A DNA stretch of 64,000 bases from the NCBI GenBank assembly GCA_964493895.1, contig CAZBPY010000001.1, forward strand, positions 27,233 through 91,232, read 5' to 3'. Of this stretch, positions 4,050-29,916 are shown piece after piece. Position 1 is the first letter of the stretch, and each line of letters begins with the position of its first letter. Under the pieces are notes generated by a model, which searched no databases, had not been told where the DNA came from, and saw nothing but the letters and a program-made list of their open reading frames with translations. This stretch comes from an uncultured Candidatus Saccharibacteria bacterium (lineage in GTDB: Bacteria > Patescibacteriota > Saccharimonadia > Saccharimonadales > JAGQNJ01). The position numbers and the translations under genes were made by a program.

Positions 4050-5558
4050 TTAGTAAACCACCGGTTGACTACACTCTTGACCCTTGCAATTGCGTAATTT
4101 GTTCAGATGGGTTCGGAGCTTGTTGAGTAGATTTTGATGATTGGACGAGGCGTGCAGGCTTTGCAGTTGATACGGATCGGTTTTTAGATCATAAAGCTCT
4201 TGTTCGTCGGTGCTCCAGCGAATGTATACATAGCGGTCTGTACGAACACCCTCCCAGCCATAGGATTGAGTATCGGCATCCCACTGTCCTTGAATGAGAA
4301 TTGCCCTGGAGTTGGTGTAATTTGGATTATTTAAGAAGTTAGTCAGCGATATTCCATCTTGAAGTCGGCTATAGTTTTTGTTTACTCGTGCTAGATCTAG
4401 TATTGTCGCAGCTATGTCCACGTTGGATACCAACTTATCACTGGTAGCTTTTTTGGCTATGCCTGGGCCGCGAATAATCATCGGTACCCTGATGATTTCT
4501 TCATATGGCCAATCTTTACCGAAGGTTATTCTATGTTCGCCATGAGCGAAACCATTATCAGACATAAATATAAAGTAGGTATTGTTTATCTCACCTGCTT
4601 CTCTAACTGCCCGAACAATTTTCGACACCGCTTCATCGACAGATTTGAGGGCTTCGCACTCTCGCCGATAGGTGCGAGTGATCAGTTTTCCGTGCCGAGT
4701 GCGGTCAGTGATTGGCATACTAGCAATAATATGTGGCTTATCTGAAACATCAGCCTCCATGTAGGCAGGGCTTTGCGGTACGGGCATGCCCGCCCCAAGC
4801 CCACGATGACGTGGGGCTGGTGTAGCCGTGCCATCACGCGAAGAGTGTGGTGCCCACGGTGTAAAGAGGAGGAAAAAAGGTCGATTACGGGCGGATTGAT
4901 TTTTAATTGCTGTTACAGCTCTATTCCTAAGCACATCTGTTAGATAGTCTTTTTTTCTGCTGCCGTACAGAGTGCGTTTGCCATTATGGTTAATGTAGTA
5001 ATTATAATAATCGTTTTTTCGTCCGTTTACGACAAAAGAGTGCCAATTGGTCCAGCCTGGTTGTTTTCCGGCTGTTGCTGGGGTGCCGTTTAGATACTTG
5101 CCAATCAAGGTAGTTGAATATCCGGACCTGCTTAGGGCACTGGCTAGGGTTGTACTTTGATCGGTTGCCCTAAAAACAGAGAAGCCGCCATCGGGTTTAC
5201 CATTGCTACGCACCTGGTTGTTTTGATCATACTGACCGGTCATGAGAGTGGCTCGAGATGGACAACATAAGGGGTGGCTAATTATAAAATTGGTAAATGT
5301 GGTACCCTGCCCCGCCATCAGTTGACGAGTTTTCTTCATATGATCAAGGTGTTGATAGCTCATATCGTCAACCATGATTACCACAAAGTTTGGCCGTGAA
5401 GTCGAGGTGATTTCGGCAGTAACAGCCGAGAATGGCCACACTTGCAGCAAATTTATGCTTGACAGGTTGCCCAACATTAACAAGAGTGCGACTAATCCGC
5501 CTACGATCAGTAATCGAGACGGGCTGAGGCGTAAACCTTGAGATGATAGTGTAGGCAT
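4050..5558 (-). CDS. Cys-type (formylglycine) sulfatase, N-acetylglucosamine-6-sulfatase-like, exported
   Basis: N-terminal TM/signal. Metal-binding block VVIMVDDMS. FGly signature PLCCPSRATLMTGQ (C-x-P-x-R). Block DYYNYYINHNGK...DYLTDVL resembles the GNS-type YYNYTLSINGK...DYLTDVL as I recall it. Confidence 0.85.
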   Translation of the reverse strand: MPTLSSQGLRLSPSRLLIVGGLVALLLMLGNLSSINLLQVWPFSAVTAEITSTSRPNFVVIMVDDMSYQHLDHMKKTRQLMAGQGTTFTNFIISHPLCCPSRATLMTGQYDQNNQVRSNGKPDGGFSVFRATDQSTTLASALSRSGYSTTLIGKYLNGTPATAGKQPGWTNWHSFVVNGRKNDYYNYYINHNGKRTLYGSRKKDYLTDVLRNRAVTAIKNQSARNRPFFLLFTPWAPHSSRDGTATPAPRHRGLGAGMPVPQSPAYMEADVSDKPHIIASMPITDRTRHGKLITRTYRRECEALKSVDEAVSKIVRAVREAGEINNTYFIFMSDNGFAHGEHRITFGKDWPYEEIIRVPMIIRGPGIAKKATSDKLVSNVDIAATILDLARVNKNYSRLQDGISLTNFLNNPNYTNSRAILIQGQWDADTQSYGWEGVRTDRYVYIRWSTDEQELYDLKTDPYQLQSLHASSNHQNLLNKLRTHLNKLRNCKGQECSQPVVY

Positions 5559-5655: not shown

Positions 5656-6159
5656 ATGCAGGCAAGCAATAAAACCAACAAAAAGATAGTTGTTATTAGT
5701 GCTATAGGGATATTAAATCTTGCCTTGATCTCTGTTGTTGTCTACCTATTGTTGTTTAGGCCACAACGAATTGAGCTGCCGACAGATATGGCCACACAAG
5801 CCACCTATCAGTTGTATGTACCCAGCAATTTGCCTAAAGGTTATGCTTATGACAACGACAGTCCCTATTTTAGCGAGGGAGTCTTTGGCTACACTGTGAC
5901 TGGCCCAAACAGTGAAAAGATATTTATAACTCAACAGGCTCGACCTAAAGACTTTGATTTTGAGCAATTTTATCTTAGCCATTTTTTTAAACGCTATGAG
6001 CAATTGACCGAGGCCGGAAAAACCACTTTCGGAGAAATAAATTTCCGATCAAAGGTTTTTAGCATTGAAGCTGGTGATACTTGGATATTTGCCAACGGTG
6101 ATCTCAGTCTAAGTAATCAGGCTATGGAAGATGTCGCCCGAAGTCTCAAGCGCTATTAG
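5656..6159 (+). CDS. hypothetical N-terminally anchored protein
   Basis: 167-aa ORF with a single N-terminal TM. TTGTGT-N17-TACAAT promoter-like sequence ends 11 nt upstream of the ATG. Confidence 0.5.
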   Translation: MQASNKTNKKIVVISAIGILNLALISVVVYLLLFRPQRIELPTDMATQATYQLYVPSNLPKGYAYDNDSPYFSEGVFGYTVTGPNSEKIFITQQARPKDFDFEQFYLSHFFKRYEQLTEAGKTTFGEINFRSKVFSIEAGDTWIFANGDLSLSNQAMEDVARSLKRY

Positions 6160-9038
6160 CGCATAGCTGCAGTGCCGCCGCGCAGATAGTAATAGTCCAG
6201 CACCACACTACGTGAGGTGGTTCCGGCGGTTTTATTCAAGACAACGGCCGGAGCAACATTACGTCCCGAGGCTGTCGGTATGTTCGAGTTTATGGTGCCG
6301 GCTAGGCTGCCATCGATATAGAAAGAGATCGAGGAGGCTGACGAGTTAACCACGATTTTAAAACGTGTCCAGTTAGTGGTAGCGGCTACACTGGTGGTGG
6401 TAGTAGTAAAGGCGCTATTATTGTAACTGAAGATCTTCCAGTTGGCCGATGAAGCTGAATCGAATTCAAAATACACTGAGTTTGGCGTATTAGCATTGGC
6501 ACCGGTGCCAGTCATCAAGCCGGCTCGGAAAACATATGATTGGACAGAGGGCGATGAAATACTATTGAGCTTGGCAGCAAATTCAATTTCCAAGTTGGCC
6601 CCAACCAGCAACTGGGAGTTGCTTCCACCGGTTCCCAGGCCGATTCCAGCCACGCCGCTGTTGGTGGTGCCGGTATCGAAAGTTACGTTTCCGGGTCGAT
6701 CGGCTGTCACAAACGTGCCGTCGGAGGCTACCGAAGAACCTGTGCCGTTTGTGTTTGTAGTCCAGCCTTCCGTTCCTACCGTACCTGAGGAAGGACCACT
6801 GTTTATAAAGTCGTCGCGGATAAAGAATTCACCGCTGCTGGGACTGACTGAGTTACCACAGTTCTTCCAAAATGAAGCAATGGAGCCGCCGTAACAACGG
6901 AATTGGCCAATGGCCGAGTTGTAGTACATTCCTCCTTCCACGCCGGTGGCCTCGGTGGTGTCGCTGTCTGTATCAAGCACGAATTGAGTGGTGTTAGCAT
7001 CACTTACACCTACCCGTAGCAAGGTGTTGGTTGTGTCGGCAGTAAATAAGGCTGTACCGGCGGCATTTTGGATTGTAAAAGCACCTGTCGAGTTAGTTTG
7101 GTTTCGAAGTGTTGTGGCTCCGCCGTCAGCAACATCTACGACGTTTCGAGATGTCGACGTGGTGTCTGTGATACGAAACAATGTACCACTTGCAGCACTA
7201 ATATGCGCTCTGGCCTGGGGGGTCTTAGTACCGACTGCAAAAAAAGTGTCCGTTGTCGTTGCACCATCATGCCCTACGATTAGACCGGTGCCAAATTCTC
7301 CTGCTCCGCTGTTAACGTAGACGTTACCCGTAGTACTCATCGAACCGCTATTAAGACCGGTTGTCAGATATATGTCACCCCCATTGCCACAGAAGGTGCA
7401 GGCGTCAGCTGCCTTTATGATAATATCGCCGGCCGCACCGGAGGTGGGTGTGGTCATGCCTATTGTTCGGCTAGAGTTGTGCGCAAAAGTTAGGTCGGTA
7501 TTAATTGCTGTGCTGGCCAGGTTACTTAACGCTGTGTTGGCCCCACTACCACAGCTCCCCCACTGGATGGTTGTTGAGGTAGAGGTTAGACAATCGCCAT
7601 TGCTGCCACGCGCCAACCGTGTTGAGTTTGAGCCGTTGTGATATAGAAGGTCGCCATTGGTGGTCAGTCCAGAGATGTTGTTGATTGCTCCCTGTGCAGT
7701 TGTCGCGCCCGTACCCCCATAATCAAGGGCTACGGTACTGCCCTGCCAAGTTCCAGCTATGACTTGTCCAGAAGCATTGATTTGGAAAGCGTCAGCAGTA
7801 CCAACAGTAAATAAGCTAGCCGGGCTAGAATCACCGACACCGACATTACCGCCAGACGTTATGCGTATCCTCTCGGTGTTCTGGGTATTGAGGGTAATGG
7901 CTGCCGGAGCTGTCGTACTAGTAGCATCAGCGTCCTGTATGAAGCCCACTGTTGATGCGTTTCCTAGAAGAGCGGCCGGCATGCCAGAAGTAGTCATACC
8001 TGAGGCTCCTAACTGGAATAGTAAATCTCCATCAAGAGATTCCGAAGGCGAGCTCTGATCACCGCGGCCTCTAATGGCAAAAAAGGCGCCGCCGTCCGTG
8101 GCGTTAGACGAGTAGCTTTCGAATCCTTGCCTGGCGGCACCGTTATTATTGATCACAGACAGCGCGATCGCCCCTGGTACAGTGCTATGAAAGACTGGCT
8201 CTCCATCGCCGATAACAACCTGGCCATCAACTTGAAGATCAGCAGTTGGGGCATTAGTTTTGATGCCCACCCTTTCATTGGCAGTATCAACATTGAATAT
8301 AGGTGTACCCCCATCAGCATCGCTAATCTGGAAGCCGGTGGTTGAATCGGTGGTGGTTTTAAAGCTGGCACTGCCCCCATTGCCAATCAACAATACACTG
8401 GTGCCGGCGCGCTGCAGATTGATGATGTCAGCAGTGCCGCCGGTTTTGTTTATAAATATCGATGCATTAGTTGTTGAGGCGTCATTTTGGACACCTTGAG
8501 CAAGCTGAACGAAAGCCGTCGACTGTAAGCCATTCAGAAGGGTTGAGTTGGCTGCCTGGAAGGCTTGAGGTACTGCACCAAACCGTCTAAATGGCAGCAT
8601 TTCTCCATCGTAAGTCGGCGAGGCTGTATTAGCTGTACCACCGATGTCAATCGATAGCCACAAACTGCTTTCATTCCAGTCGACAGAGTTGCCGAAGGCC
8701 TCTAGTGAGCCGAGATAAACCGAGAAATAGCCATTAGCTACCCGAACACGATTGGACTGTTTCCACTCCTCTGTCCAAACCAGGGTACCGCTACAGGGAG
8801 ACGAGCCACCGCCTACACAGCCATCGCCACCTTCGTAGACCTTAAAGCGCATGTTGTAGTCGCCATCGGCCACCACCGCTCCGGTACTAGTTAGCAGTCG
8901 CCCCTGATAGTTAATCTGTTCGTTAATCGCGGCATTGGTTGGCCTAGAGGAAACTGCCAGAACGGTAAAAATCAATAAAAAGGCCAAAAGCTTGGCTACA
9001 GAGGTAGTTCGACTGATTTTCGTAATTTTTGTGTTCAT
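6156..9038 (-). CDS. large secreted Gly/Thr/Ser/Ala-rich surface protein with LamG/concanavalin-like C-terminus
   Basis: Signal peptide (..TNA|AINEQ). N-terminal INYQGRL..G..V.DG.Y...F..Y module common in fibre/adhesin-like proteins. C-terminal ~200 aa (NWTRFKIVVNSSASSISFYIDGSLAG) looks like a jelly-roll lectin fold. Confidence 0.7.
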   Translation of the reverse strand: MNTKITKISRTTSVAKLLAFLLIFTVLAVSSRPTNAAINEQINYQGRLLTSTGAVVADGDYNMRFKVYEGGDGCVGGGSSPCSGTLVWTEEWKQSNRVRVANGYFSVYLGSLEAFGNSVDWNESSLWLSIDIGGTANTASPTYDGEMLPFRRFGAVPQAFQAANSTLLNGLQSTAFVQLAQGVQNDASTTNASIFINKTGGTADIINLQRAGTSVLLIGNGGSASFKTTTDSTTGFQISDADGGTPIFNVDTANERVGIKTNAPTADLQVDGQVVIGDGEPVFHSTVPGAIALSVINNNGAARQGFESYSSNATDGGAFFAIRGRGDQSSPSESLDGDLLFQLGASGMTTSGMPAALLGNASTVGFIQDADATSTTAPAAITLNTQNTERIRITSGGNVGVGDSSPASLFTVGTADAFQINASGQVIAGTWQGSTVALDYGGTGATTAQGAINNISGLTTNGDLLYHNGSNSTRLARGSNGDCLTSTSTTIQWGSCGSGANTALSNLASTAINTDLTFAHNSSRTIGMTTPTSGAAGDIIIKAADACTFCGNGGDIYLTTGLNSGSMSTTGNVYVNSGAGEFGTGLIVGHDGATTTDTFFAVGTKTPQARAHISAASGTLFRITDTTSTSRNVVDVADGGATTLRNQTNSTGAFTIQNAAGTALFTADTTNTLLRVGVSDANTTQFVLDTDSDTTEATGVEGGMYYNSAIGQFRCYGGSIASFWKNCGNSVSPSSGEFFIRDDFINSGPSSGTVGTEGWTTNTNGTGSSVASDGTFVTADRPGNVTFDTGTTNSGVAGIGLGTGGSNSQLLVGANLEIEFAAKLNSISSPSVQSYVFRAGLMTGTGANANTPNSVYFEFDSASSANWKIFSYNNSAFTTTTTSVAATTNWTRFKIVVNSSASSISFYIDGSLAGTINSNIPTASGRNVAPAVVLNKTAGTTSRSVVLDYYYLRGGTAAMR

Positions 9039-9141
9039 TTTTGTTTTTGGAGTGAACTACCCTGTTAGAGTAGCACATAGAAACTACCACGGACAAGCAT
9101 TTTTGAATAAATTTGTCTCTTACTGAACTAGCATTATCCGG

Positions 9142-10089
9142 CTAGTTTGATAAATGCTGATCTGAGGGTGGGTTCTGCTGCCTCTTATGGCGCCGATGAT
9201 TTATGTACAATCCAAGCAAGATTCCAATCAGCACCAAGATCAGGAAGATAATCAACCACAGCCACCACGGCAGGCCCTCAACCCTATCGATGATGCTTGG
9301 GCGAGAATCTTCTTTCTCATCAACCGGACCGTTGACCACTGCTACTGTTTGAATGTAGGCTTTTTGGCCGATGTTGTCACTAGCAAAAATCCGAATAATC
9401 CTTGTACCGGGAGTCTTGAAAACGTGACTAGCCAAAAATGGTCCGTTGGATTTTAGAGCAATAATGTCTTCAGTATCATCACCCCAATCAATTTTGATTG
9501 CGTAAGGGGGTACGCCGCCGATAACTGACGGTTCGATTTCAAAAGGATCACCCGGAAAGATTCCTCGGTAATCTGTGTCAATCTGTAACAGTAATTGGGC
9601 TACATCGCTAGGCGTAGTTTGTGCCCCACCTCCGCCAGAGGGTATAGGTTGAGGAGTTATTGGTCGATAACTCACTTCTACTGGCGCCGAATCAGGACCA
9701 TACTGTCCCAGACTGTCCTTGATCTTGGCAATCAAAATGTTTTTACCAAAAAACAAATCAATATTAATTGAAAAGGTGCCATTGCCTTGACATGAGCCAG
9801 AGCCGGCAAAGACATTATTCTTGTAAATCTCTATGGTGGTATTGCCTGTACAGGTACCAATGACTGTTATTGGCGATGTCGTAAAATGTTGTCCATTGAC
9901 TGGCTGATTTATGACAGCTGGCTGGGACGGCGGTGAAGCCGGCACCGTACCCTGCACATTAATTTCTCCATCAATTGGATTAGCCAAGACCGGCACAACC
10001 AAGCCTAGACTGAATACGCCCAGGCAGATTGCAAGCACTAGGCAGCTCCATCGCTGCAAACGACTGTGACTAAAGGGCCGCCACGCCAT
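9142..10089 (-). CDS. surface protein with Ig-like + PKD domains and a C-terminal TM anchor
   Basis: Likely start is M31 of the track ORF (MAWRPF..., signal/TM), which removes the 86-nt overlap with the upstream gene. PKD-like IKIDWGDDTEDI...HVFKTPGTRIIRIFASD. C-terminal TM WWLWLIIFLILVLIGILLGLYI followed by a basic tail. Confidence 0.65.
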   Translation of the reverse strand: MAWRPFSHSRLQRWSCLVLAICLGVFSLGLVVPVLANPIDGEINVQGTVPASPPSQPAVINQPVNGQHFTTSPITVIGTCTGNTTIEIYKNNVFAGSGSCQGNGTFSINIDLFFGKNILIAKIKDSLGQYGPDSAPVEVSYRPITPQPIPSGGGGAQTTPSDVAQLLLQIDTDYRGIFPGDPFEIEPSVIGGVPPYAIKIDWGDDTEDIIALKSNGPFLASHVFKTPGTRIIRIFASDNIGQKAYIQTVAVVNGPVDEKEDSRPSIIDRVEGLPWWLWLIIFLILVLIGILLGLYINHRRHKRQQNPPSDQHLSN

Positions 10090-10093
10090 ATAA

Positions 10094-11185
10094 TTACTGA
10101 TTGTTAGTTGGTGCGGGCGGTGTTGGAGCCGGAGGTTCGTTATTGTCGTCTGTAGGTTTGTGAACAGCTCCCGGTTCATGAGGTGCTGGTCCGCCAGGTC
10201 CAGCCGTCTCTGAGTGTCCGTGTTTGATATCGTCTTCGCGGTGAATTTCTTCGGCTACATGTTTCCTGTATCGCTTTAGCAGGAAGACAATGATCAGTAT
10301 TAGAAGAATCAGACCGCCGAGTACCGCTAGTACCATTTTGTATGGCACTACCCAAAAGGTTATTTCACTATCCAAAGTCTGATTGTCGCCGTAAGTCAGG
10401 CTCAGAACTGCTTTGTACCGCCCGAACATATTTGTTTTGTCGAGCGTTTGTTCGAACTTGCGGATACTCGATGGCAAGATATTGCCGCCACTTTCATTGA
10501 CGTTAAGGCTAGCGACTTCCTTTCCGAAGGTATCGGTGATTTTGATTGTTCCGGTTGGCTTGAAGTGAACGTTACCGGTGTTGTTAATGCGTTCAGTAAA
10601 GTCCAGTGGCCCTTTTTCAAAGAAAGTTCCCTGTTTGCCATCTTGGCTGATAGAGAATTGCTCGACAGAACCCTGTATACGCACATCACCAGATACATTC
10701 AACAAGACTAGCGTGCCAATACTGGCTGATAGTGATACTCCTGTTTCATCTAAACCGACTGGTTGGGCTGTAAACCTTACCACCCCATAATGCCCGCCTG
10801 GCGAAGCATCTTGCGGCACATTAATTGTTATCTGAGCAGTCTTAATCTCTCGTGGTGCTAGGCGCAGACTTGGGATTTGACTGACCCAGGGCTTGAATGT
10901 GTAGGGTGATGGTTCGGAGCTGTCGCCAACTAGAATCTTTGGTTGGCCATCTTCGTCGTCTCCGGCTACAAAATCGTCAATCTCACCATTAGCAATCACT
11001 TCTGTTTCGGTGATATTACGAACTCGTATATCAATCACTATTGACTGGCCTGGATCTACTTGTTCATCAACTAACGGGGGTGAAATTTCTAAACCTTGGC
11101 CTGATTGCTGAGCTCCAACCGTACCAAATATCGGCACTAGCAGCAAAGCGATCAGTAAAATCGCTGCAAAAAGTCTTTTTTTCAT
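10094..11185 (-). CDS. two-domain surface protein with C-terminal TM anchor, DUF916/DUF3324 (CscA)-like
   Basis: Signal peptide, two beta-rich halves (GLEISPP...VIDIRVRNITE...GGHYGVVRF, then LVLLNVSGDV...FGRYKAVLSLTYG), TM LAVLGGLILLILIIVFLL, and a basic/Pro-rich cytoplasmic tail. Architecture recalled from Firmicutes csc/WxL clusters; not verified. Confidence 0.55.
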   Translation of the reverse strand: MKKRLFAAILLIALLLVPIFGTVGAQQSGQGLEISPPLVDEQVDPGQSIVIDIRVRNITETEVIANGEIDDFVAGDDEDGQPKILVGDSSEPSPYTFKPWVSQIPSLRLAPREIKTAQITINVPQDASPGGHYGVVRFTAQPVGLDETGVSLSASIGTLVLLNVSGDVRIQGSVEQFSISQDGKQGTFFEKGPLDFTERINNTGNVHFKPTGTIKITDTFGKEVASLNVNESGGNILPSSIRKFEQTLDKTNMFGRYKAVLSLTYGDNQTLDSEITFWVVPYKMVLAVLGGLILLILIIVFLLKRYRKHVAEEIHREDDIKHGHSETAGPGGPAPHEPGAVHKPTDDNNEPPAPTPPAPTNNQ

Positions 11186-11260
11186 ATAAATTACATCCTC
11201 ACCTTTTAAGCTTTAGCGTTATTATAACTGTAGTTTTTTATTGAATCAACCAGTTATCCC

Positions 11261-12307
11261 CTAAAACGTTGCTGTGCAAATGTAGGTAATTGTAGTGGTG
11301 TAACTGCCAGCTTCCTGGACACCGCTAATGTTGGCAATGTAGGAAACTGTGTAGGTGGTAGTGTCACTAGGCGCATTGTCAGAGTCAGCAATGGTGGTAA
11401 GGGTACTGGCTACAAAAGCGTACTCATCAGCGGTATCGTAGTTGTTAGCAGCTTGACCGCTACCCCCGGAGGGTGCAGCCGAGCTAGTTACACCAGTGTT
11501 GGGACCAGTAGCATTAATGCCGAATTGACTAGTACCGGGATCAGAAGCTGTACCGGTTCCGCCAATGGCAGCAATGGTGTTACTGCCACTAGTTAGAGTT
11601 GGCCCAAAGTACTGGATTACATAACCGCCGTCAGCGTTAGTAGCAGCATCCATTTTGCTAATTCCGCCGGTTAGATCACTGGTAGTTAGATTACCCAAAG
11701 CTACGGATGAACCGGAGGCGGCACAGTTAGCACCAGTGTATACACAGAAGGTTAGAGTTTCATTGACAGAGGCAGTGACGGTGATTTGGTTGGCGGTGCT
11801 GGAGGCTACCGTACCAGTATCGGTGGCACCGGAAGTAGCATCGGTGCTGGTATAGGTAGTGATCCGTACATAAAAAGTTGTGTTGCTTGTCGATGGGTTA
11901 TCTATATCCCCTAGAGTAAATGATACTGCGGTTGTAGCCGCACAACTGGTGGCGCTACGGGTTACATAGGGAGCCCCATTGCTGGTGTTTTCTATGGTGA
12001 AACCGGTACAGCCAGTCTGGGCATCGAGACTGGCACTAGTTGTATCAAGGCCTGTAGGTGTAGTACAGGTTCCAGCGGCGGCTGTACAATATTCAAATTC
12101 TATCGATCCGATGTTAGCGGTGGTAGCAATTGTAAAATCAAATTTATGATCATTTGTGGCACTAGCTGCAGAGGAACTTATGGTAACCTTTCGAGCTGTC
12201 AGTTGAGCCGCCTGGGCAGGAGCCGGACGAAAAGCCAAACACGCTAAAATCAATAAAAACAGTCCAGCTAGTATGCCGAAATTGACTCTTCTAATTGTTT
12301 TTGTCAT
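11261..12307 (-). CDS. secreted Thr/Ser/Ala-rich beta protein, paralog of 12381-13115 (WxL-domain-like?)
   Basis: Signal peptide ending AQAAQ. Shares blocks GGYVIQYFG, QFGINATG, YTVSYIANISGV and AGSYTTTITYICTATF(end) with the neighbouring gene. Confidence 0.6.
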   Translation of the reverse strand: MTKTIRRVNFGILAGLFLLILACLAFRPAPAQAAQLTARKVTISSSAASATNDHKFDFTIATTANIGSIEFEYCTAAAGTCTTPTGLDTTSASLDAQTGCTGFTIENTSNGAPYVTRSATSCAATTAVSFTLGDIDNPSTSNTTFYVRITTYTSTDATSGATDTGTVASSTANQITVTASVNETLTFCVYTGANCAASGSSVALGNLTTSDLTGGISKMDAATNADGGYVIQYFGPTLTSGSNTIAAIGGTGTASDPGTSQFGINATGPNTGVTSSAAPSGGSGQAANNYDTADEYAFVASTLTTIADSDNAPSDTTTYTVSYIANISGVQEAGSYTTTITYICTATF

Positions 12308-12380
12308 TTTTTACCCTTATTATTGACTCTATTTTAACATTAGTGTAATGTTCGTCAAACTTTTTATGCACAACAATAAC

Positions 12381-13115
12381 TTAATATGTACCTACACATA
12401 TAAATCCTTGCTTACCAGTATAGTTTCCTCCGGGGGTTACAGAGCTAATATTAACGATATATGAAACTGTGTAGTTGGTTTGGCCTGAGCTTTGGGTAGC
12501 ACTAGCTACGGTTTCGCCAGGAACATAACGAAACTGATTGGCCGTGGAGTAACCACCCGCGGCTCCACCGAAAGAAAAGGTATTATCCGGCACCTGGACT
12601 GGATCGGCCCCAAAAGTAACCGGAGAAGTATTGGCTCTGAGATTAATTCCAAATTGCTCTACCCCAGTTTGTGAGGCATCGGTTGAACTCATACCGGACA
12701 GAACGTGACTGCCGCTAGACGGTGGATCGCCAAAAGCCTGAACTACATATCCATAACTTGTGTAATTTAAAACACTGAAGGTAGCATTACCAGTTTTAGC
12801 GGTAACGGTTGAAAGTCCGCCTAGATCCAAGGAGCTGGTATTAACTATAAATGCCAAACGCGGCTCACCATCAGTTACATAGCCTGACTGCAACCGATTG
12901 CCATCAGACACACCGCTATCGCCAATAGCATTATCGCCAATGGTGTCTCTACCGCTGTAGTTCGTCGATCCATCGTCGACCGCCCCGCCCGTGCCGATAA
13001 ACTGTTCTTGAATACTATAATTATTCGAGCTCGACTGAGCATACAGCGTCGGAACAGTTGTGATAACCAAAATCAAACTAGTAAACAGGATAATTGTTTG
13101 CAGCTTTTTAAGCAT
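12381..13115 (-). CDS. secreted beta protein, paralog of 11261-12307 (WxL-domain-like?)
   Basis: Signal peptide ..LYAQS. Blocks YGYVVQAFG, QFGINLRAN, YTVSYIVNISSV and GGNYTGKQGFICVGTY(end). TATACT lies 8 nt upstream of the ATG. Confidence 0.6.
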   Translation of the reverse strand: MLKKLQTIILFTSLILVITTVPTLYAQSSSNNYSIQEQFIGTGGAVDDGSTNYSGRDTIGDNAIGDSGVSDGNRLQSGYVTDGEPRLAFIVNTSSLDLGGLSTVTAKTGNATFSVLNYTSYGYVVQAFGDPPSSGSHVLSGMSSTDASQTGVEQFGINLRANTSPVTFGADPVQVPDNTFSFGGAAGGYSTANQFRYVPGETVASATQSSGQTNYTVSYIVNISSVTPGGNYTGKQGFICVGTY

Positions 13116-13160: not shown

Positions 13161-14390
13161 TCAAAAAGGAAACTTCACCGCCTTACCAAAGTTTTGACCC
13201 AAAAATAGTGCCAAAACTTGGGCTATCGACCTATCTTCTTTCGATGCCTCATGAGTAGTTGCTTTTCTGTGAAAGTAAAGATAGATGTTGCGATCAGAGA
13301 TACCGTTTTGACTGCGGCGTATTGCATCGACGGCTCTTATAGCTGATTCGAGGTCAGATTGATTGCAACTTTGTAAAGTTGTGCGAAATTCCAAAGGTGT
13401 GCCCAGGATAGCTGTTTTGACTCTATCGGCTACAGTTATTTGTGGTGTACTTTTTGGCCTACGGCCACTACTAGCATGGTGCCGACTACCTTGCTGACGC
13501 GTTGTCTGATCATGGTGGCGTCGTTCTTCCCGATTACGGGCAGTTTCTTGTCTGCCCCTCTCTCTCATCCTAGCTGCACCTCTTAATTCATCAGTTACTC
13601 TGGGCTCATAGGCAGCGTAGTTTAATGAACGAAGTTTAACCCCCCGCGCTCTAAAGGATAAGTAGCCGAGCATTGTCTCTCTGGCCTCCGGTGATGAAGC
13701 ATATTCGTTTACAAGCCGAGCACCTTCTTTATAACTATCGTCAGAGAGCCGGACAGCTCTAGCCAGTACTTTTTTGTCCAAAGCCGCCATCATAACCAAT
13801 CTGGCTGCGCGACTAGAGGCATACTGCGTAGCTGCATAATTATCTGATGGGTTGGGTTTGTTGTTAGCTCGATAGTACAAGCGACTATCTAGGGCACTGC
13901 GCAGACCTTGGCGCATTACGTCTGTAAATGCATATTCGTCTATCAAGCCTATTGCGACATCCGGATCTTGTCGCCCCACCAGCCTCATCTCGGCTTCAAA
14001 AAACAATCGCCGCATCAGGGCAACATGAGCTAGGCCAAAATATTTATCCTTGATTTCTTCATATGCCAGCAGGGCTGGTTTAAACTCATCGGCATAAGCA
14101 ACAGCCTTGATAGCATTAACCTCCTCCTTATGTTCGTCTGCAATGTCACCGCCGATAGTTTCAAGCCAAAATAAGGCCGGTTCTTCGATACAGGCTTTGT
14201 TGGTTTTGAAAGTTGAATCAGCCTCGTCCTCATACCCAGCTAGATACCGAGGAACAATTAAATTGCTCTGGGGTTGGAATGGCGCCCAGCCAGATGCCAA
14301 TTCATCTAAGGCTGCCCTGTTGCCAGCTGCTTCCATAGCTATTTGATTCTCGTATGCTAGATATATTCCTTCTAAGTTGGGGCGAGCCAT
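13161..14390 (-). CDS. hypothetical cytoplasmic protein with internal Arg/His/Gln-rich linker
   Basis: 409-aa ORF with GAGGAG SD 8 nt upstream. No motif recognised. Basic low-complexity stretch RMRERGRQETARNREERRHHDQTTRQQGSRHHASSGRRPK. Confidence 0.55.
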   Translation of the reverse strand: MARPNLEGIYLAYENQIAMEAAGNRAALDELASGWAPFQPQSNLIVPRYLAGYEDEADSTFKTNKACIEEPALFWLETIGGDIADEHKEEVNAIKAVAYADEFKPALLAYEEIKDKYFGLAHVALMRRLFFEAEMRLVGRQDPDVAIGLIDEYAFTDVMRQGLRSALDSRLYYRANNKPNPSDNYAATQYASSRAARLVMMAALDKKVLARAVRLSDDSYKEGARLVNEYASSPEARETMLGYLSFRARGVKLRSLNYAAYEPRVTDELRGAARMRERGRQETARNREERRHHDQTTRQQGSRHHASSGRRPKSTPQITVADRVKTAILGTPLEFRTTLQSCNQSDLESAIRAVDAIRRSQNGISDRNIYLYFHRKATTHEASKEDRSIAQVLALFLGQNFGKAVKFPF

Positions 14391-14500: not shown

Positions 14501-14752
14501 CTACTCGCGGGGGCGAGCTTCGTTGACGCGAATTCGACGACCGCTAACTTCTTGACCGTCAAGGCCCTTGATAGCGGCTTGAGCTTCTTCGACAGTCGAA
14601 AATTCTACAAAGCCAAAACCTTTAGATTGTCCGCTGTCTCGGTCTTTGATGACCACAGCTGATTCAACTGTTCCGAATTGCTTGAAAGCTTCAGCTAGAT
14701 CATCATCGCTCATTGCGTATGCTAATCCGCCGACATATAGTTTACTAGCCAT
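14501..14752 (-). CDS. RRM-type RNA-binding protein
   Basis: RNP-2 LYVGGL and RNP-1 KGFGFVEF in an 83-aa single-RRM protein. AAGGAAG SD. Confidence 0.85.
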   Translation of the reverse strand: MASKLYVGGLAYAMSDDDLAEAFKQFGTVESAVVIKDRDSGQSKGFGFVEFSTVEEAQAAIKGLDGQEVSGRRIRVNEARPRE

Positions 14753-15347: not shown

Positions 15348-16487
15348 CTATTGGATCGGTTGTTGGGGTATAGCAGCTTCTGGCGGTTCCGGCAAAGTAA
15401 TGTAAACTCTCGACGGTTGCTGGGCCTTCATGTCATTAATAAAGGAGTTAACGTCTTGGAAATTAAACAGGATATGAGCCCCGCGGACAGTGTCCCCTTT
15501 CTTTTCCAGTAGTTTTAATATTTCTAACGAATAACCAGTGTTTACCACTGGTGAATACTGACCTGGTTCAAGACTAAACAAGACCGCAGTTGCCTGGGGT
15601 GTTACATTTTTGTCGGTTTTAGTGATGTCAAAGCCAAACTGACCACCATTATCTTTGCTGGCTAAGTCGTCTGAATACTTTTTGGCAACCTCTTCGAATG
15701 GCGTTCCGGCCTGCAGCTCCGCATAAGCAGCATCAGCCCGTTCGGTGGTTGGCACATCCAAGGCCGCCACTACTTTCTGGGTCAGTAATTCTTGGTGGAG
15801 ATAGCGCCTGAAATCATTGACTGACCAGCCAAAGTAATCTTGCAAGACATCTTCGAAAACCTGGTCGCCATTTCCTAACCTGTTTTGGTCGCGCAACAAC
15901 TGAATCTGGTCGTCTACCTCTTGATCACTGACCGTAATTCCCTTTTCTTTGGCGATTTTCTTGACATATGTAAGAGTAACCACTCGATCCAAGGCGCGTC
16001 GTTCAAATTCGGCCAGTTGCTGCTGGCCCGATTCGCTGTCAAAATCAAGTTTTTGCTGAGTCTCATAGTAGTGCATGTAGCGTCGCAGCTCGAAAAGATA
16101 GTTCTCATAAGCCACAAAGTCTCGTCCTACCCGAGCAATCGGAAACGGCACAATCTGAGTTACCTTGTACATAAAGTTCGAATTCGCTCCCAGGCGGTAT
16201 AGGGCAATGGTTGAATAAGCGAAAAATGCCAACAGGGCCGCTACTACCAAAGAGACCGATATCAGTACAATTTTGTGTTTGGATTGTTGCAGAGGATAAA
16301 TAAGCTTGCGAGCCGATGATAATACTTCCTCGCGGTGCTCTGGAATTGCCGTGTTGGTAATTTTGGGCACTTTCTTTGGCGGCTCAGACTCTGTGCGCCG
16401 GGCCTCAGCATAGGCTTCACCTTTGGCTTTGACCTCGGCGGCGGTGTGAACGGCTTTTTTCTTGGCTCTATGTAAAATTTTTTTCAT
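15348..16487 (-). CDS. membrane-anchored parvulin-type peptidyl-prolyl isomerase (PrsA/SurA-like)
   Basis: N-terminal TM, SurA-N-like helical region, then a C-terminal parvulin block (FEEVAKKYSDD..GGQFGF...GYSLEILKL). Confidence 0.7.
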   Translation of the reverse strand: MKKILHRAKKKAVHTAAEVKAKGEAYAEARRTESEPPKKVPKITNTAIPEHREEVLSSARKLIYPLQQSKHKIVLISVSLVVAALLAFFAYSTIALYRLGANSNFMYKVTQIVPFPIARVGRDFVAYENYLFELRRYMHYYETQQKLDFDSESGQQQLAEFERRALDRVVTLTYVKKIAKEKGITVSDQEVDDQIQLLRDQNRLGNGDQVFEDVLQDYFGWSVNDFRRYLHQELLTQKVVAALDVPTTERADAAYAELQAGTPFEEVAKKYSDDLASKDNGGQFGFDITKTDKNVTPQATAVLFSLEPGQYSPVVNTGYSLEILKLLEKKGDTVRGAHILFNFQDVNSFINDMKAQQPSRVYITLPEPPEAAIPQQPIQ

Positions 16488-24821: not shown

Positions 24822-26045
24822 TTAGATAGATAGAGCATCGCTGCCAACCAGACCGTAAACTGGCAGCAGCACAGCAGCCACAATCAGGATAGCTATTAGA
24901 CCCATGACAATCATTAAAACTGGCTCGATAGTAGTCGAAATAGCCTTGATTTCGTTGTCCACTTCTCGCTCATAGTAATCAGCCGTTTTGGACATCATTT
25001 GTTCAACTGCACCGGACTGTTCACCAATGTGAAGCATGTCTGGGACCAAAGGTAAGAAGTTTGGATCGCCCCTTAGTGAATCAGACAGGGCCTTACCACC
25101 CTTGACCTTCTCGGCGGCTTTACTGATCGATTCTTCGATATGAATATTGTTTATAGAGCGACCGGTTATTTCCAGCATTTGGATCAATGGAACACCACTG
25201 GCCACTAAAGTTGAGCCGACTCTTGTGAACCGAGCCATGTAGACCTTCATAAACAGTCGGCCAATCGGCCAAGCGCGCATTTTTAGACTATCAATAGTCC
25301 TCTTTCCGCCAAGCGACCGAGCCCAGCGCGTAGTAGCAAGTACAATAACCACAACCAAAATTATTTCAAGCCACCAAAACCTGATAGTGAAGTTGGCCAC
25401 ACCCACCAAAAAACGGGTCACGAATGGCAATTGAGCTCCCGGTAAGCCGGCGTAAACCTCTTCGACGGCTGGGACGACACTGACAACCATGAAGATAACT
25501 ACACCAACCATAACCAAAAGCACAATGGCCGGATAGACCATCGCTCCACGGACTTTGGATAAAATTTCAGCGTCCTTTTCTTTTTGATTGGCGATGCGCT
25601 CTAGAGTTTTGTCGAGAGTTCCTGAAGCTTCACCGGCAGCAACTAGGTTAACAAAAACTTCGTCAAAAACTGTCGGGTGTTTAGCCAGGGCGGCTGAAAA
25701 AGACATGCCGGATTCAACATCGGTAATTACCTGGTTAATAACGACTTGTAAATTCTTGTTTTGAGTCTGGCCGGAAACATTACGCAAGCTTTGTACTAAA
25801 GGCAATCCGGCATTAATAAGCGTTGATAGTTGCCTTGAAAACAAAACCTTATCTTTGGTTTTTATACGGTTTCTAAAACGGCTAAGAAATCCGCTAGTAG
25901 AATCTTCATGGACTACAATTTCCAATGGAGATAAGCCTTGGGCTTGGATTTGTTTGGCGGCGGCTGTCTCATTTTCGGCCGACAATTCAGCTGTGACTTT
26001 CTTGCCAGTGACCGGGTCGCGAGCAGTATATTTATAGGTAAGCAT
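24822..26045 (-). CDS. pilC: type IV pilus platform protein (GspF/PilC family)
   Basis: 407 aa with the duplicated T2SS-F architecture and 3 TM segments. Position between pilT and pilA. Confidence 0.9.
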   Translation of the reverse strand: MLTYKYTARDPVTGKKVTAELSAENETAAAKQIQAQGLSPLEIVVHEDSTSGFLSRFRNRIKTKDKVLFSRQLSTLINAGLPLVQSLRNVSGQTQNKNLQVVINQVITDVESGMSFSAALAKHPTVFDEVFVNLVAAGEASGTLDKTLERIANQKEKDAEILSKVRGAMVYPAIVLLVMVGVVIFMVVSVVPAVEEVYAGLPGAQLPFVTRFLVGVANFTIRFWWLEIILVVVIVLATTRWARSLGGKRTIDSLKMRAWPIGRLFMKVYMARFTRVGSTLVASGVPLIQMLEITGRSINNIHIEESISKAAEKVKGGKALSDSLRGDPNFLPLVPDMLHIGEQSGAVEQMMSKTADYYEREVDNEIKAISTTIEPVLMIVMGLIAILIVAAVLLPVYGLVGSDALSI

Positions 26046-26055
26046 TTACTTGCTC

Positions 26056-27165
26056 CTAGCTCCTCATCATGCGGTCAAGTTCATCCAGGTCAACAGCAAA
26101 GTTTCGAGCTTCATCGTAAGTAATAACGCCCTTCTGAACCAAGCTAACCAAGGTCTTGTCCATTGATTGCATGCCAAATTCAGCACCGGTTTGAATTACG
26201 GCTTCTAACTGATGGCTCTTGCCTTCGCGGATGATATTTCGGACAGCCGGAGTGGCAATCAGGATTTCAGCTGCTGCCACCCGTCCGCCACCTATGGCCG
26301 GTACAAGACGTTGCGAACAAATGGCCATTAGAATGTTGGCTAATTGGGAACGAATTTGCGGCTGTTGATGCGGCGGAAAAACATCGATCATACGATCAAT
26401 CGACTGAGCTGCCGAGTTAGTGTGCAGTGTAGCAAACACCAGGTGACCAGTTTCAGCAATGGTAATAGCTGCAGCAATCGTTTCTAGGTCGCGCATCTCA
26501 CCAATCAGAACAACATCCGGGTCTTCACGCAACGAAGATCGCAGCGCTGCCGAGAACGAATAGGTATCATAGTGAACTTCGCGCTGAACAACCACTGATT
26601 TTTTGGATTTATGCGTAAACTCAATGGGGTCTTCAATGGTTATGATGTGATCGGCTCGCTCGTTGTTAATTTTGTCAATCAAAGCCGCCAAAGTAGTCGA
26701 CTTACCCGATCCGGTCGGGCCAGTAACTAAAACTAGTCCGCGAGGATAGTCAGCAAACTTGTTGACTACTTGAGGCAAGCCCAGTTGCTCGACATTCAAG
26801 ACTTCATTGGGAATTAGACGAAGAGCCGCTGCCAAGTTGCCACGTTCGTGAAAAGCGTTAACACGAAAACGGCCCAACTCACCATAGGCAAAGCTAAAGT
26901 CGAATTCTTTGTCTTTAAGTAGAATCTGTTTTTGATCTTCGTCTAAGATGGCAAAAATGAGTGACTCCACCGATTCTTCAGTTAAAACATCGGCCCCGGA
27001 AACAGGAGTCAATTTTCCGTCAATGCGTAGTATTGGCGCTAAACCTACCTGTAGGTGGAGGTCCGAGGCTTTCTTTTTAATTACCTCGTCAAGCAATGGC
27101 TCGATACGTGTTCCATTAGCCGGGTTATTGTTTGTTGTCTGTTGTGGTGTTGGTGTATCTGCCAT
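26056..27165 (-). CDS. pilT: type IV pilus retraction ATPase
   Basis: 369 aa. Walker A GPTGSGKSTTLAALID, Asp box, Walker B VVLIGEMRD, TLHTNSAAQSIDR. Lacks the long PilB-type N-domain. Confidence 0.9.
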   Translation of the reverse strand: MADTPTPQQTTNNNPANGTRIEPLLDEVIKKKASDLHLQVGLAPILRIDGKLTPVSGADVLTEESVESLIFAILDEDQKQILLKDKEFDFSFAYGELGRFRVNAFHERGNLAAALRLIPNEVLNVEQLGLPQVVNKFADYPRGLVLVTGPTGSGKSTTLAALIDKINNERADHIITIEDPIEFTHKSKKSVVVQREVHYDTYSFSAALRSSLREDPDVVLIGEMRDLETIAAAITIAETGHLVFATLHTNSAAQSIDRMIDVFPPHQQPQIRSQLANILMAICSQRLVPAIGGGRVAAAEILIATPAVRNIIREGKSHQLEAVIQTGAEFGMQSMDKTLVSLVQKGVITYDEARNFAVDLDELDRMMRS

Positions 27166-27182
27166 TTTTCCCTCTTTCTCCT

Positions 27183-28976
27183 TTAGGCACTTTCTGCACC
27201 GGCAACCCGGTTAACCTCATCAAGTGTTGTTAGACCGGCTAGAGCCTTTAGGTAGCCATCCTGCCGCATAGTTACCATTCCGTTAGCAACAGCTGCCTTT
27301 TGGATTTCTGCGCTGGTGGCTCTTTTCAGAACTAGATTTTGTATGCCCTCATCGATGTTGAAGACTTCATACAAGCCCATTCGTCCCTTATACCCACCGG
27401 GCGCTTCGGGGCTATCTTTGCCCTTGAATAAAGTATAAGCGTTTTGGCCCCTTAAGGGCAAGCTTTTATAGCCGAGGTCGGCGGCAACCTTGGCCATATC
27501 TTCCGGTTTTTCCGGCAATAGGTGGCCAACGGTAGTATTAATTGCTGTTGTTTCAGCCGCATTTGATTGATATGACTCCTTATCGTCAGCTATTCGGCGG
27601 ACTAGGCGCTGGCCAATCACTACTCTGACGGTACTGGCAATCAAAAATGGCTCGATGCCCATATCAAGCAAGCGCGGCAAGATGCCAGATGCCGAGTTAG
27701 TGTGCAGTGTCGAGAATACCAAGTGGCCAGTCAGGGCCGCCTGAACCGCCAATTGAGCAGTTTCTTTGTCACGAATCTCACCTACCATAACGATGTTGGG
27801 GTCTTGGCGCAGAATCGATCTCAGGCCGCTGGCAAACGTCAGCCCAACATCTGGATTAACTTGAATCTGGTTAACTCCCTGGATTTTGTACTCTACCGGA
27901 TCTTCCAGGGTAACAATATTTACCTGATCATTCTTGACCTCCTGCAGCAGGGCGTACATTGAGGTTGACTTACCCGATCCGGTCGGGCCAGACGTCAAAA
28001 CCATACCGTTAGAGAACTTCAAGGCCTCACGGATTCGTCTTAATGAACGGCCGCCATAGCCCATTTCTTCTAGTTTCAAGCTAGTTCCGGACTTGTCTAG
28101 CAACCTGATAACCACTTGCTCGCCCCAAACCGTTGGCGCAATAGCGATACGCAAATCTATGTCTCGTCTAGCGACTCGAACGGTAAACTGACCATCTTGT
28201 GGGATGCGGTGCTCGTCAATTTTAAGATTGGATAAAATTTTTATGCGCGACACTAACGGCGCTTCTGTACTCTTTGGCAGACGCATAATTTCCCGCAAAA
28301 CCCCGTCAATCCGTGCTCGGATTTTTAGCTCGTCTTGCATTGGTTCGATGTGGATATCACTAGCCCGATTGTTAGCCGCGTACTCCAAAATAGCTGACAA
28401 GGCTTTACTAATTGGCGAATCAGCTACGACTGTCTCAATCTTATTTTGAGCCGGCAGAGCTGAACTGGCCTGGCTAGCAGCCGCTATGGCCTCGCCCCCC
28501 TCGGTGAGTGCTGTAGCAACCGATTGATCTAATTTTGATTGATACTGGCTTAGAACCCTTCTAATTCCCTCTTCAGAAGCAGCATAGACCTTAAGCGGCC
28601 GGCCAATCTTATTAGATAAAAAATCTACTGCCTGGATATTATCAGCGTCCAGCATGGCTACTACCAACCGATGCTGCATTTCCCCTAAGGGCACAGCCAT
28701 ATACAGCTCGGCGATGTCCTGGGGTAATAAAGCCAAAATCTCTGGATCAATCTTGGCATTGGTCAGATTGACATATGGAACATTGGTAACATTAGCGATT
28801 GTCTTGGTTAGCACCTCGTTAGAAACACCGCCTTCAGATACAACTAGCTGCAGGAACGGTACACTTTGATCTTTGGCCTTCTGACCCAAGCGTCGAGCCA
28901 TATCGGCCGTCAGCAACTTTTTGTCAATAAGCGCTGCTTCGACCTTTTTTCGGATGTCTTCGGATAGGACACTCAA
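27183..28976 (-). CDS. pilB: type IV pilus assembly (extension) ATPase, GspE/PilB family
   Basis: 597 aa. N-terminal T2SSE_N-like repeats, Walker A SGPTGSGKSTSMYALL, MVGEIRD, TLHTNSASGI. TTG start with AGGAGG SD 8 nt upstream. Confidence 0.9.
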   Translation of the reverse strand: MSVLSEDIRKKVEAALIDKKLLTADMARRLGQKAKDQSVPFLQLVVSEGGVSNEVLTKTIANVTNVPYVNLTNAKIDPEILALLPQDIAELYMAVPLGEMQHRLVVAMLDADNIQAVDFLSNKIGRPLKVYAASEEGIRRVLSQYQSKLDQSVATALTEGGEAIAAASQASSALPAQNKIETVVADSPISKALSAILEYAANNRASDIHIEPMQDELKIRARIDGVLREIMRLPKSTEAPLVSRIKILSNLKIDEHRIPQDGQFTVRVARRDIDLRIAIAPTVWGEQVVIRLLDKSGTSLKLEEMGYGGRSLRRIREALKFSNGMVLTSGPTGSGKSTSMYALLQEVKNDQVNIVTLEDPVEYKIQGVNQIQVNPDVGLTFASGLRSILRQDPNIVMVGEIRDKETAQLAVQAALTGHLVFSTLHTNSASGILPRLLDMGIEPFLIASTVRVVIGQRLVRRIADDKESYQSNAAETTAINTTVGHLLPEKPEDMAKVAADLGYKSLPLRGQNAYTLFKGKDSPEAPGGYKGRMGLYEVFNIDEGIQNLVLKRATSAEIQKAAVANGMVTMRQDGYLKALAGLTTLDEVNRVAGAESA

Positions 28977-28988
28977 GTCAGGTGCCTC

Positions 28989-29240
28989 CTAGTTTTCGGT
29001 CTGGAATGGTTGCTGGCTTTGTCCGTCACCAATGGTGATTGTGAAGGTTGGGTTTACTGAGCTCTCATTAAAATAACGTTTATCCGGTTCTGGGAAATCA
29101 GCTGTAATTGGGTCGACAACTTCGACTTCCGTTTGTAGATCTTCAGGTGCAGCAAATAATGCTCTGGAAATGAAGAACGACAAAATACCGCTAACAAAGA
29201 CGACGGCTACTATAATGGCAATATCTTTTTGCTTCATCAC
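28989..29240 (-). CDS. small bitopic protein in the pilus operon (PilP-position), unknown
   Basis: 83 aa with one N-terminal TM. 4-nt overlap with the pilO-like gene. Confidence 0.45.
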   Translation of the reverse strand: MMKQKDIAIIVAVVFVSGILSFFISRALFAAPEDLQTEVEVVDPITADFPEPDKRYFNESSVNPTFTITIGDGQSQQPFQTEN

Positions 29241-29914: not shown

Positions 29915-29916
29915 TC

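Follow-up and report, generated by a model that had tools for sequence, protein, structure and literature searches.

A probable Pam-type pilus operon with a putative chaperone of the DUF916/WxLIP family in a Candidatus Saccharibacteria contig

We analysed a stretch of 64,000 nt (the window) of the Candidatus Saccharibacteria contig CAZBPY010000001.1 (GCA_964493895.1; all coordinates are window positions), in which five consecutive minus-strand genes encode exported proteins (Table 1). The five genes very probably form a compact Pam-type pilus operon of Saccharimonadia, whose products would polymerise through donor-strand exchange into a thin filament on the cell surface, with no outer-membrane usher involved. 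We identify the operon as such because the NCBIfam models for PamT, the Pam pilin C-terminal domain and PamR match its products. The locus is a Pam pilus system, which has been described already, and not a new system; what is added here is the link of its chaperone to the DUF916/WxLIP family. The structures of two filaments of Candidatus Mycosynbacter amalyticus, a Saccharimonadia parasite of Gordonia, were solved by cryo-electron microscopy (Troman et al. 2026, bioRxiv 10.64898/2026.03.03.709456). According to this preprint PamA and PamB are two-domain pilins, and the linker strand between the domains completes the open immunoglobulin (Ig)-like C-terminal domain of the neighbouring subunit. 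AlphaFold-based assignments of the same work are the transmembrane (TM)-anchored, PapD/FimC-like chaperones PamC and PamD, the single-domain tip PamT and the RbmA-like, TM-anchored terminator PamR; a 'tail fibre-like' gene is described as a conserved neighbour of the Pam operon. The NCBIfam models NF058578, NF058579 and NF058581 derive from this preprint.

An earlier reading of the window (the original prediction) had likened the locus to the csc/WxL cell-surface clusters of Firmicutes. All five open reading frames (ORFs) were found where it had placed them, and each product carries a signal peptide by sequence. The 244-aa product of the first gene matched NF058579 (CPR_pilus_PamT) with 296.6 bits (cutoff 240) over profile positions 6-241 of 241, and NF058581 (Pam_pilin_C) with 168.9 bits (cutoff 55). 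The 348-aa product of the second gene matched NF058581 with 133.3 bits against the same cutoff. These are the only two Pam pilin domain genes in the window, and the 348-aa protein is the sole rod subunit of the operon. In PamT the signal peptide is followed by an N-terminal stretch that is conserved and rich in Gly, Ser and Asn, and residues 91-244 form its single Pam pilin C-terminal (acceptor) domain. The pilin combines its signal peptide with two domains, a beta-sandwich on the N-terminal side (about 40-170) and the Pam pilin domain on the C-terminal side (198-348). The paralogy of the two proteins, proposed originally, was borne out by BLASTP with 36% identity across 142 aa (E = 2e-12), the homology lying in the C-terminal 150 residues or so. 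Likewise, the sequence blocks quoted for the pair were located at equivalent positions of PamT and the pilin, i.e. GYV(V/I)Q at 122 and 228, QFGIN at 154 and 261, YTVSYI at 215 and 319, and (G/T)(F/Y)IC at 237 and 341. Both paralogs keep a lone cysteine at an equivalent position in the last beta-strand, Cys240 (FIC) of PamT, which is the only cysteine of this protein, and Cys344 (YIC) of the pilin. The pilin cysteines C74/C81, C100/C122 and C188/C195 show the spacing of three candidate disulfide pairs with C344 as the odd seventh; C74, C81, C188 and C195 are invariant in the pilin alignment.

An AlphaFold2 (AF2) model of the pilin with a mean predicted local distance difference test score (pLDDT) of 90.5 showed two beta-rich domains. 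The score fell to 69 in block 171-180, the internal block of lowest confidence. The inter-domain linker NQITVTASV (173-181) is a candidate donor strand, and the membership in the Pam family together with the two-domain model and its floppy linker suggests that filaments form by exchange of the linker strand. The best 50 Foldseek matches of the full-length pilin model were generic two-Ig adhesins such as integrin calf domains, MSCRAMMs, the CFA/I tip adhesin CfaE and RbmA. When the PDB was searched by sequence, none of the profiles used (pilin, chaperone, fibre and WxL) had a relevant match.

The longest ORF for the fourth protein spans 9142-10179 (345 aa) and overlaps the chaperone gene by 86 nt. 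An ATG at 10089 is located 4 nt past the chaperone stop, and both the PamR family model and the signal peptide begin there. Most likely this ATG is the start of the gene, which then encodes 315 and not 345 aa. As the protein with this start had no exact match in the protein collection, the boundaries of the deposited gene call are presumably different. The fourth protein matched NF058578 (CPR_pilus_PamR) with E = 1.4e-72 over profile positions 13-291 of 297. It is composed of a signal peptide, two Ig/fibronectin type III-like domains and a C-terminal TM helix (275-296). The TM helix and the DWGDDT motif named in the original prediction are present, while the PKD domain deduced from the motif had no Pfam support. 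The N-terminal strand GEINVQGTV (41-49) is kept across 75 PamR homologues.

The third protein, of 363 aa, is predicted to be the assembly chaperone. In its AF2 model (pLDDT 86.6) two beta-sandwich domains (about 32-142 and 155-279) are followed by a helix (282-322) with a hydrophobic TM core (284-303) and a Pro-rich cytoplasmic tail, which is the layout described originally. PF06030 (WxLIP_PGBD = DUF916) scored 15.8 bits with the protein itself, under the cutoff of 27.3, and matched 57 of the 59 chaperone family members with a best E of 2.1e-9; close homologues are named 'DUF916 domain-containing protein' by NCBI. With a 49%-identical homologue (P0090) as query, tblastn retrieved 'DUF916 and DUF3324' proteins on Enterococcus plasmids across 86% of the query length, and it also reached DUF916 proteins of Clavibacter and Streptomyces with E down to 5e-13. 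The chaperone family profile aligned to a 'DUF916 and DUF3324' WxLIP of Enterococcus gallinarum by hhalign with a probability of 91% and E = 9.6e-7 across the DUF916 domain; this match stops after domain 1. In a Foldseek search of the PDB with the 363-aa model the top match was 9i25_C, 'WxLIP from Enterococcus faecium locus A bound to long WxL', at E = 2.3e-10, and 9i1y was found as well. The alignment to 9i25_C comprised 267 columns of the 251-residue chain, i.e. both domains. After WxLIP the list continued with dozens of chaperones of chaperone-usher systems (CfaA, CsuC, DraB, Caf1M and FimC) at E of 1e-8 to 1e-6. None of the 59 chaperone family members matched PF11797 (DUF3324), and their listed Pfam matches included neither a PapD nor an usher family. 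Taken together, membership of the 363-aa protein in the DUF916/WxLIP family, and with it homology at the level of the chaperone, is well supported. Of the original assignment to DUF916/DUF3324 (CscA) the DUF916 part holds, and DUF3324 is undetected by sequence.

Conservation in the chaperone family is highest in the segment TGVSLSASIGTLVLL (148-162), located where domain 1 ends. Its hydrophobic residues alternate, and it overlaps with lower-confidence blocks of the AF2 model. By its placement the segment is a candidate complementing strand. AlphaFold work on WxL clusters had a strand of WxLIP completing the beta-sandwich of the WxL protein (PMC10599100), and this, as we read it, amounts to complementation by a chaperone, though it is not called so. 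The fold, the position of the gene and the WxLIP-WxL precedent thus suggest that the 363-aa protein acts as a chaperone. The Pam preprint makes no mention of WxL, DUF916 or DUF3324 (Troman et al. 2026), and in the literature searched we found no paper on the structures 9i25 and 9i1y, nor one that joins WxL to Pam, donor-strand or chaperone-usher systems. DUF916-type proteins nearer to the CPR (candidate phyla radiation) chaperone than those of Enterococcus are encoded on actinobacterial, Deinococcus and even Haloarcula plasmids, next to genes for small unannotated secreted proteins. Examples are L002:5155-6969 (Clavibacter phaseoli plasmid), L083:5866-8743 (Streptomyces goshikiensis) and L084:3913-9659 (Deinococcus psychrotolerans).

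Species-representative genomes were scanned with the chaperone family, which yielded 114 relatives and 80 loci that were kept. Synteny was then assessed by tblastn of the five window proteins, using loci with enough flank as denominators. Almost all of the 80 loci belong to metagenome-assembled genomes of Saccharimonadia/Patescibacteria, in agreement with the ultra-small bacterium assumed in the original prediction, here a member of the CPR. PamT was encoded 5' of the chaperone in 52 of 63 loci, a PamR homologue directly 3' of it in 59 of 61, and an ORF with the N-terminal module of the fibre protein 3' of PamR in 44 of 61. The complete order PamT - pilin(s) - chaperone - PamR - fibre was colinear in 35 of the 50 loci with both flanks, i.e. 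the five genes are co-localised in related genomes too. Related loci contain one to five pilin-domain genes, and the two-gene form of the window is common to several of them. In a subgroup (L037, L043, L062, L064, L066, L067, L073, L074, L077, L078 and L082, including Microsaccharimonas) a strong PamT match and the fibre gene are missing. About 2-3.5 kb upstream, the loci of this subgroup have an additional and highly divergent copy of the chaperone (22-28% identity), an arrangement similar to that of M. amalyticus with its two reported chaperones.

The fifth protein is a secreted mosaic fibre of 960 aa with 12.5% Gly, 13.1% Thr and 11% Ser. Its richness in Gly and Thr was noted correctly in the original prediction; the LamG-like end claimed there had no Pfam match at all. 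A signal peptide is followed by a conserved N-terminal module (about 36-270), which starts directly after the signal peptide with GINEQINYQGRLL..., and by a lineage-specific Gly/Thr/Ser-rich part (270-960). The 60 ORFs located directly 3' of PamR in related loci have only residues 1-270 in common, with unrelated distal parts and lengths up to >2,900 aa; many of them run into the end of the locus. The NCBIfam model Bdello_MAT_N (NF053851) matched residues 34-111 of the fibre with E = 1.9e-7 and 31 bits, below its cutoff of 60. The fibre had no Pfam, PHROG or PDB sequence match, and PHROGs yielded nothing useful otherwise. The mosaic adhesive trimer fibres of Bdellovibrio are prey-recognition proteins (Caulton et al. 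2024, PMC10769870). With a conserved head and a swappable tail, encoded beside an attachment pilus in an obligate epibiont, the 960-aa protein is best read as a host-recognition element, and it would be an adhesin. A hydrophobic-x-hydrophobic-x-x-x-hydrophobic pattern is shared by ITVTASV of the pilin (175-181), INVQGTV of PamR (43-49) and INYQGRL of the fibre (42-48); the family consensus of the first PamR strand is VGLTGTV. If all three segments were donor strands, the fibre could enter the groove of a pilin as PamR would, which is pure inference.

Family memberships, folds and synteny are observations of this analysis, and the following assembly scheme is modelled on them. Sec would export all five products. 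The 363-aa protein, which its C-terminal helix would keep anchored to the cytoplasmic membrane, would be a PapD-like chaperone, one strand of which, probably 148-162, would fill the open groove of the pilin C-terminal domain. PamT, with an acceptor domain only, would come first and form the distal tip of the filament. The 348-aa pilin would then be added copy by copy at the base, the linker of each copy (about 173-181) entering the groove of the subunit before it and ousting the chaperone. PamR would donate its N-terminal strand, thereby stopping growth, and hold the filament in the membrane with its own TM helix. The roles of PamT as the tip and of PamR as terminator and anchor are predicted here by homology. 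The 960-aa fibre would accompany the pilus as the likely host-recognition element.

Several points weigh against the assignment as a Pam pilus operon. With NF058578 the fourth protein scored 244 bits, while the equivalog cutoff is 300. The 363-aa protein was matched by no Pam chaperone model of NCBIfam, and its presumed equivalence to PamC/PamD is based on architecture, fold and position. The window has one pilin and one chaperone as compared to three pilins and two chaperones in M. amalyticus. Filaments with strand exchange have been seen only for PamA/PamB of M. amalyticus. Even in the preprint the roles of chaperone, tip and anchor are AlphaFold predictions (Troman et al. 2026).

Among the alternatives, a Trp-less csc/WxL-type complex, as envisaged in the original prediction, has the most in its favour, although we regard it as improbable. 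Here divergent WxL paralogs would be held at the wall by a DUF916/DUF3324 partner and serve as a non-filamentous adhesion platform. WxL clusters comprise at least two WxL proteins (PF13731), with two conserved Trp-x-Leu motifs on adjacent strands, and WxLIP, which combines DUF916 (PF06030), DUF3324 (PF11797) and a TM helix. The partner in the window is a genuine DUF916/WxLIP member by sequence and structure, and the composition of small client, larger client and TM-anchored partner parallels that of a true WxL cluster on an E. gallinarum plasmid (L001). Furthermore, the completion of the WxL sandwich by a WxLIP strand follows the same principle as complementation by a chaperone. Yet the clients themselves do not support this view. 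Pfam WxL (PF13731) had no match at E <= 10 with either paralog or with 61 pilin homologues; as a positive control the true WxL proteins of L001 scored 184 and 181 bits. The NCBIfam Pam pilin model was unmatched by true WxL proteins, and reciprocal hmmsearch of Pam against WxL with --max was empty as well. Thus direct membership of the pilins in the WxL family was rejected. Profile-profile comparison by hhalign was not significant with 61 Pam against 120 close WxL sequences (E = 0.055), with 207 Pam sequences from related loci against 121 WxL sequences (E = 0.23), or with the 207 Pam sequences against 136 WxL cluster representatives drawn from an exhaustive search (E = 0.11); the probabilities of the three comparisons were 0.3-1%. 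No WxL chain was among the best 50 Foldseek matches of the full-length pilin model, though the 9i25 complex was in the library. In addition, homologous pilins form filaments experimentally (Troman et al. 2026), and in a motif scan all five proteins lacked LPXTG-like motifs. The paralogs are confidently assigned to another named family, the Pam pilins (NF058581). What persists of the proposed likeness to csc/WxL clusters is the DUF916 partner and a parallel cluster logic; WxL clients, a DUF3324 domain recognisable by sequence and an LPXTG CscD-like gene were not found. A sortase-dependent pilus was also rejected on account of the five proteins being devoid of LPXTG, and the Pfam scan reported neither a PapD nor an usher family for any of them.

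In the two paralogs the positions at which the WxL motifs would be expected read GYV(I/V)Q and (T/G)(Y/F)IC, without Trp. The pairing of the last strands, aGsYTTTiTYIC/AttYTSTLTWEL, was the sole recurring local match and appeared in two of the three profile comparisons. Relaxed, non-significant alignments also placed GYxI on GWxL colinearly, and both positions are those named in the original prediction. We treat the likeness of TYIC to TWEL and of GYxI to GWxL as a lead, a hint from the sequences and not evidence of homology. A 208-aa protein of Clavibacter, encoded next to a bona fide DUF916 gene, contains GWYVL ... TITLSLFE, a half-decayed motif pair unseen by Pfam. It matched WxL with E = 1e-3 (narrow profile) and 0.02 (broad profile), while the Pam profile had no link to it. 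Therefore the motif can decay while the partnership persists. The DUF916 neighbours of Streptomyces and Deinococcus were linked to neither WxL nor Pam, and a bridge from Pam to WxL through such neighbours was rejected.

We tentatively raise the possibility, which at present we would sooner doubt than accept, that Pam pili, the WxL clusters of Firmicutes and the actinobacterial WxL-like DUF916 neighbours diverged from a single ancient system without an usher. The C-terminal domain of the Pam pilins would then be a Trp-less WxL domain, as the original prediction proposed. For the clients, only the short, recurring match of the C-terminal strand and the colinear motifs currently back such a homology. 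If it were true, a membrane-anchored DUF916-type chaperone would complete incomplete Ig-like surface subunits and hand them over in single-membrane bacteria, and WxL proteins might be joined by strand exchange and not simply be seated on peptidoglycan.

The remaining alternative, that unlinked secreted adhesins or surface-layer proteins lie merely side by side without an assembly relation or a filament, is very improbable: promoter-like hexamers 5' of the first three genes (13153-13124, 12358-12331 and 11249-11221) and a fibre without a recognisable domain tying it to the other four products would fit it, but dozens of species-level genomes share the gene order, only 4 nt separate the chaperone gene from that of PamR, and a chaperone-like fold is meaningful only with client subunits. 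The hexamers had been taken in the original prediction for -35/-10 elements of the individual genes. They are present; however, 13 promoter-like sites were observed in the region and 12.7 are expected in shuffled sequence, and because this is chance frequency internal promoters are not usable as evidence.

Table 1. Genes of the proposed Pam operon and type IV pilus genes in the window
Feature	Position	Strand	Basis of assignment
PamT, predicted tip, 244 aa	12381-13115	minus	NCBIfam NF058579, NF058581
Two-domain Pam pilin, 348 aa	11261-12307	minus	NF058581; BLASTP to PamT; AF2 model
Putative membrane-anchored assembly chaperone (PamC/PamD type), DUF916/WxLIP family, 363 aa	10094-11185	minus	PF06030 via family; hhalign; AF2; Foldseek
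PamR-like terminator/anchor, 315 aa (revised start)	9142-10089	minus	NF058578 sub-cutoff match; synteny
Secreted mosaic fibre protein ('tail fibre-like protein' of the preprint), 960 aa	6156-9038	minus	ORF family comparison; synteny
PilC	24822-26045	minus	
PilT	26056-27165	minus	
PilB	27183-28976	minus	
PilM	30610-31650	minus	

The surroundings of the operon contain further genes, all on the minus strand. Type IV pilus genes are found about 12 kb away (24822-31650). Thus two unrelated filament systems are encoded close together in one window. A gene for a membrane-anchored PrsA/PpiC-type peptidyl-prolyl isomerase (15348-16487) is separated from PamT by three genes. In 16 related loci such a gene lies directly 5' of PamT, e.g. 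L007:6969-7988, L012:7032-8006 and L014:7013-8002, and its product may be an extracytoplasmic foldase for pilus subunits. The 409-aa ORF directly 5' of PamT (13161-14390) has no signal peptide, no Pfam or NCBIfam match and, among the 80 related loci, no homologue. Apparently it was inserted between the isomerase gene and the pilus operon in this lineage specifically. The gene at 14501-14752 encodes an 83-aa 'RNA-binding regulator' of the RRM type (104 bits, over the cutoff), and that at 4050-5558 a secreted or membrane-associated sulfatase-family protein (arylsulfatase/choline-sulfatase models, E about 1e-37).

Saccharibacteria-type parasites are believed to make first contact with their actinobacterial hosts through Pam pili. 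The minimal set of the window, in which tip, pilin, chaperone, anchor and variable fibre are each encoded once, is a common and conserved form of the Pam system. The fibre with its conserved head and variable tail beside the operon is a candidate determinant of host range. The DUF916/WxLIP family is widespread in Gram-positive bacteria and also occurs in Actinobacteria, in Deinococcus and on haloarchaeal plasmids. The membership of the chaperone in this family is a concrete lead on the origin of Pam pili, which the preprint explicitly leaves open (Troman et al. 2026). Conversely, the link suggests a testable recasting of WxL-interacting proteins as assembly chaperones.

A comparison with known systems places the locus as follows. 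Chaperone-usher pili (Pap/Fim, CFA/I with CfaA-CfaB-CfaE, and the archaic Csu type) have a chaperone with a boomerang-like two-Ig fold like that of the window, as reflected by the Foldseek matches above. They share with Pam pili the incomplete Ig-like pilin domains with a donated strand, a tip without a donor strand and a dedicated terminator. In contrast, the Pam system has neither usher nor outer membrane, its chaperone is membrane-anchored, its donor strand would be the inter-domain linker and not an N-terminal extension, and its terminator has a TM anchor of its own. The likeness of the chaperones is at the fold level only.

The WxL/csc clusters of Lactobacillales and Listeria provide the closest structural match of the chaperone overall, with a homologous DUF916 domain and the same layout of signal peptide, two Ig domains and TM helix. 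They too combine a small single-domain client with a larger client that has an extra N-terminal domain, and a strand of the partner is predicted to complete the beta-sandwich of the client. Unlike in these clusters, the clients in the window are Pam pilins without a detectable WxL domain or Trp motifs. A DUF3324 domain recognisable by sequence and an LPXTG CscD-like gene, of which L001 has one, are lacking, while WxL clusters have no counterpart of the PamR anchor and the fibre gene of the window. According to their descriptions, WxL proteins bind to peptidoglycan and are not filamentous.

The fibre of the window resembles the mosaic adhesive trimer fibres of Bdellovibrio (NF053851; PMC10769870) in having a conserved N-terminal module and a variable distal part, and like Bdellovibrio the organism must recognise other bacteria. 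It differs by the sub-cutoff score of its match, by the monoderm CPR host and by the gene being tied to a pilus operon.

M. amalyticus differs from the window by having the three pilins PamA, PamB and PamE and the two chaperones PamC and PamD. Furthermore, the PamR match of the window is below the equivalog cutoff, and no ATP synthase genes were seen among the window ORFs scanned. On the other hand, its Pam operon has the same families of tip (PamT), pilin C-terminal domain and, as far as the sub-cutoff match goes, PamR as the window, a TM-anchored two-Ig chaperone, an adjoining tail-fibre-like gene and a CPR/Saccharimonadia host, and both loci have neither usher nor sortase.

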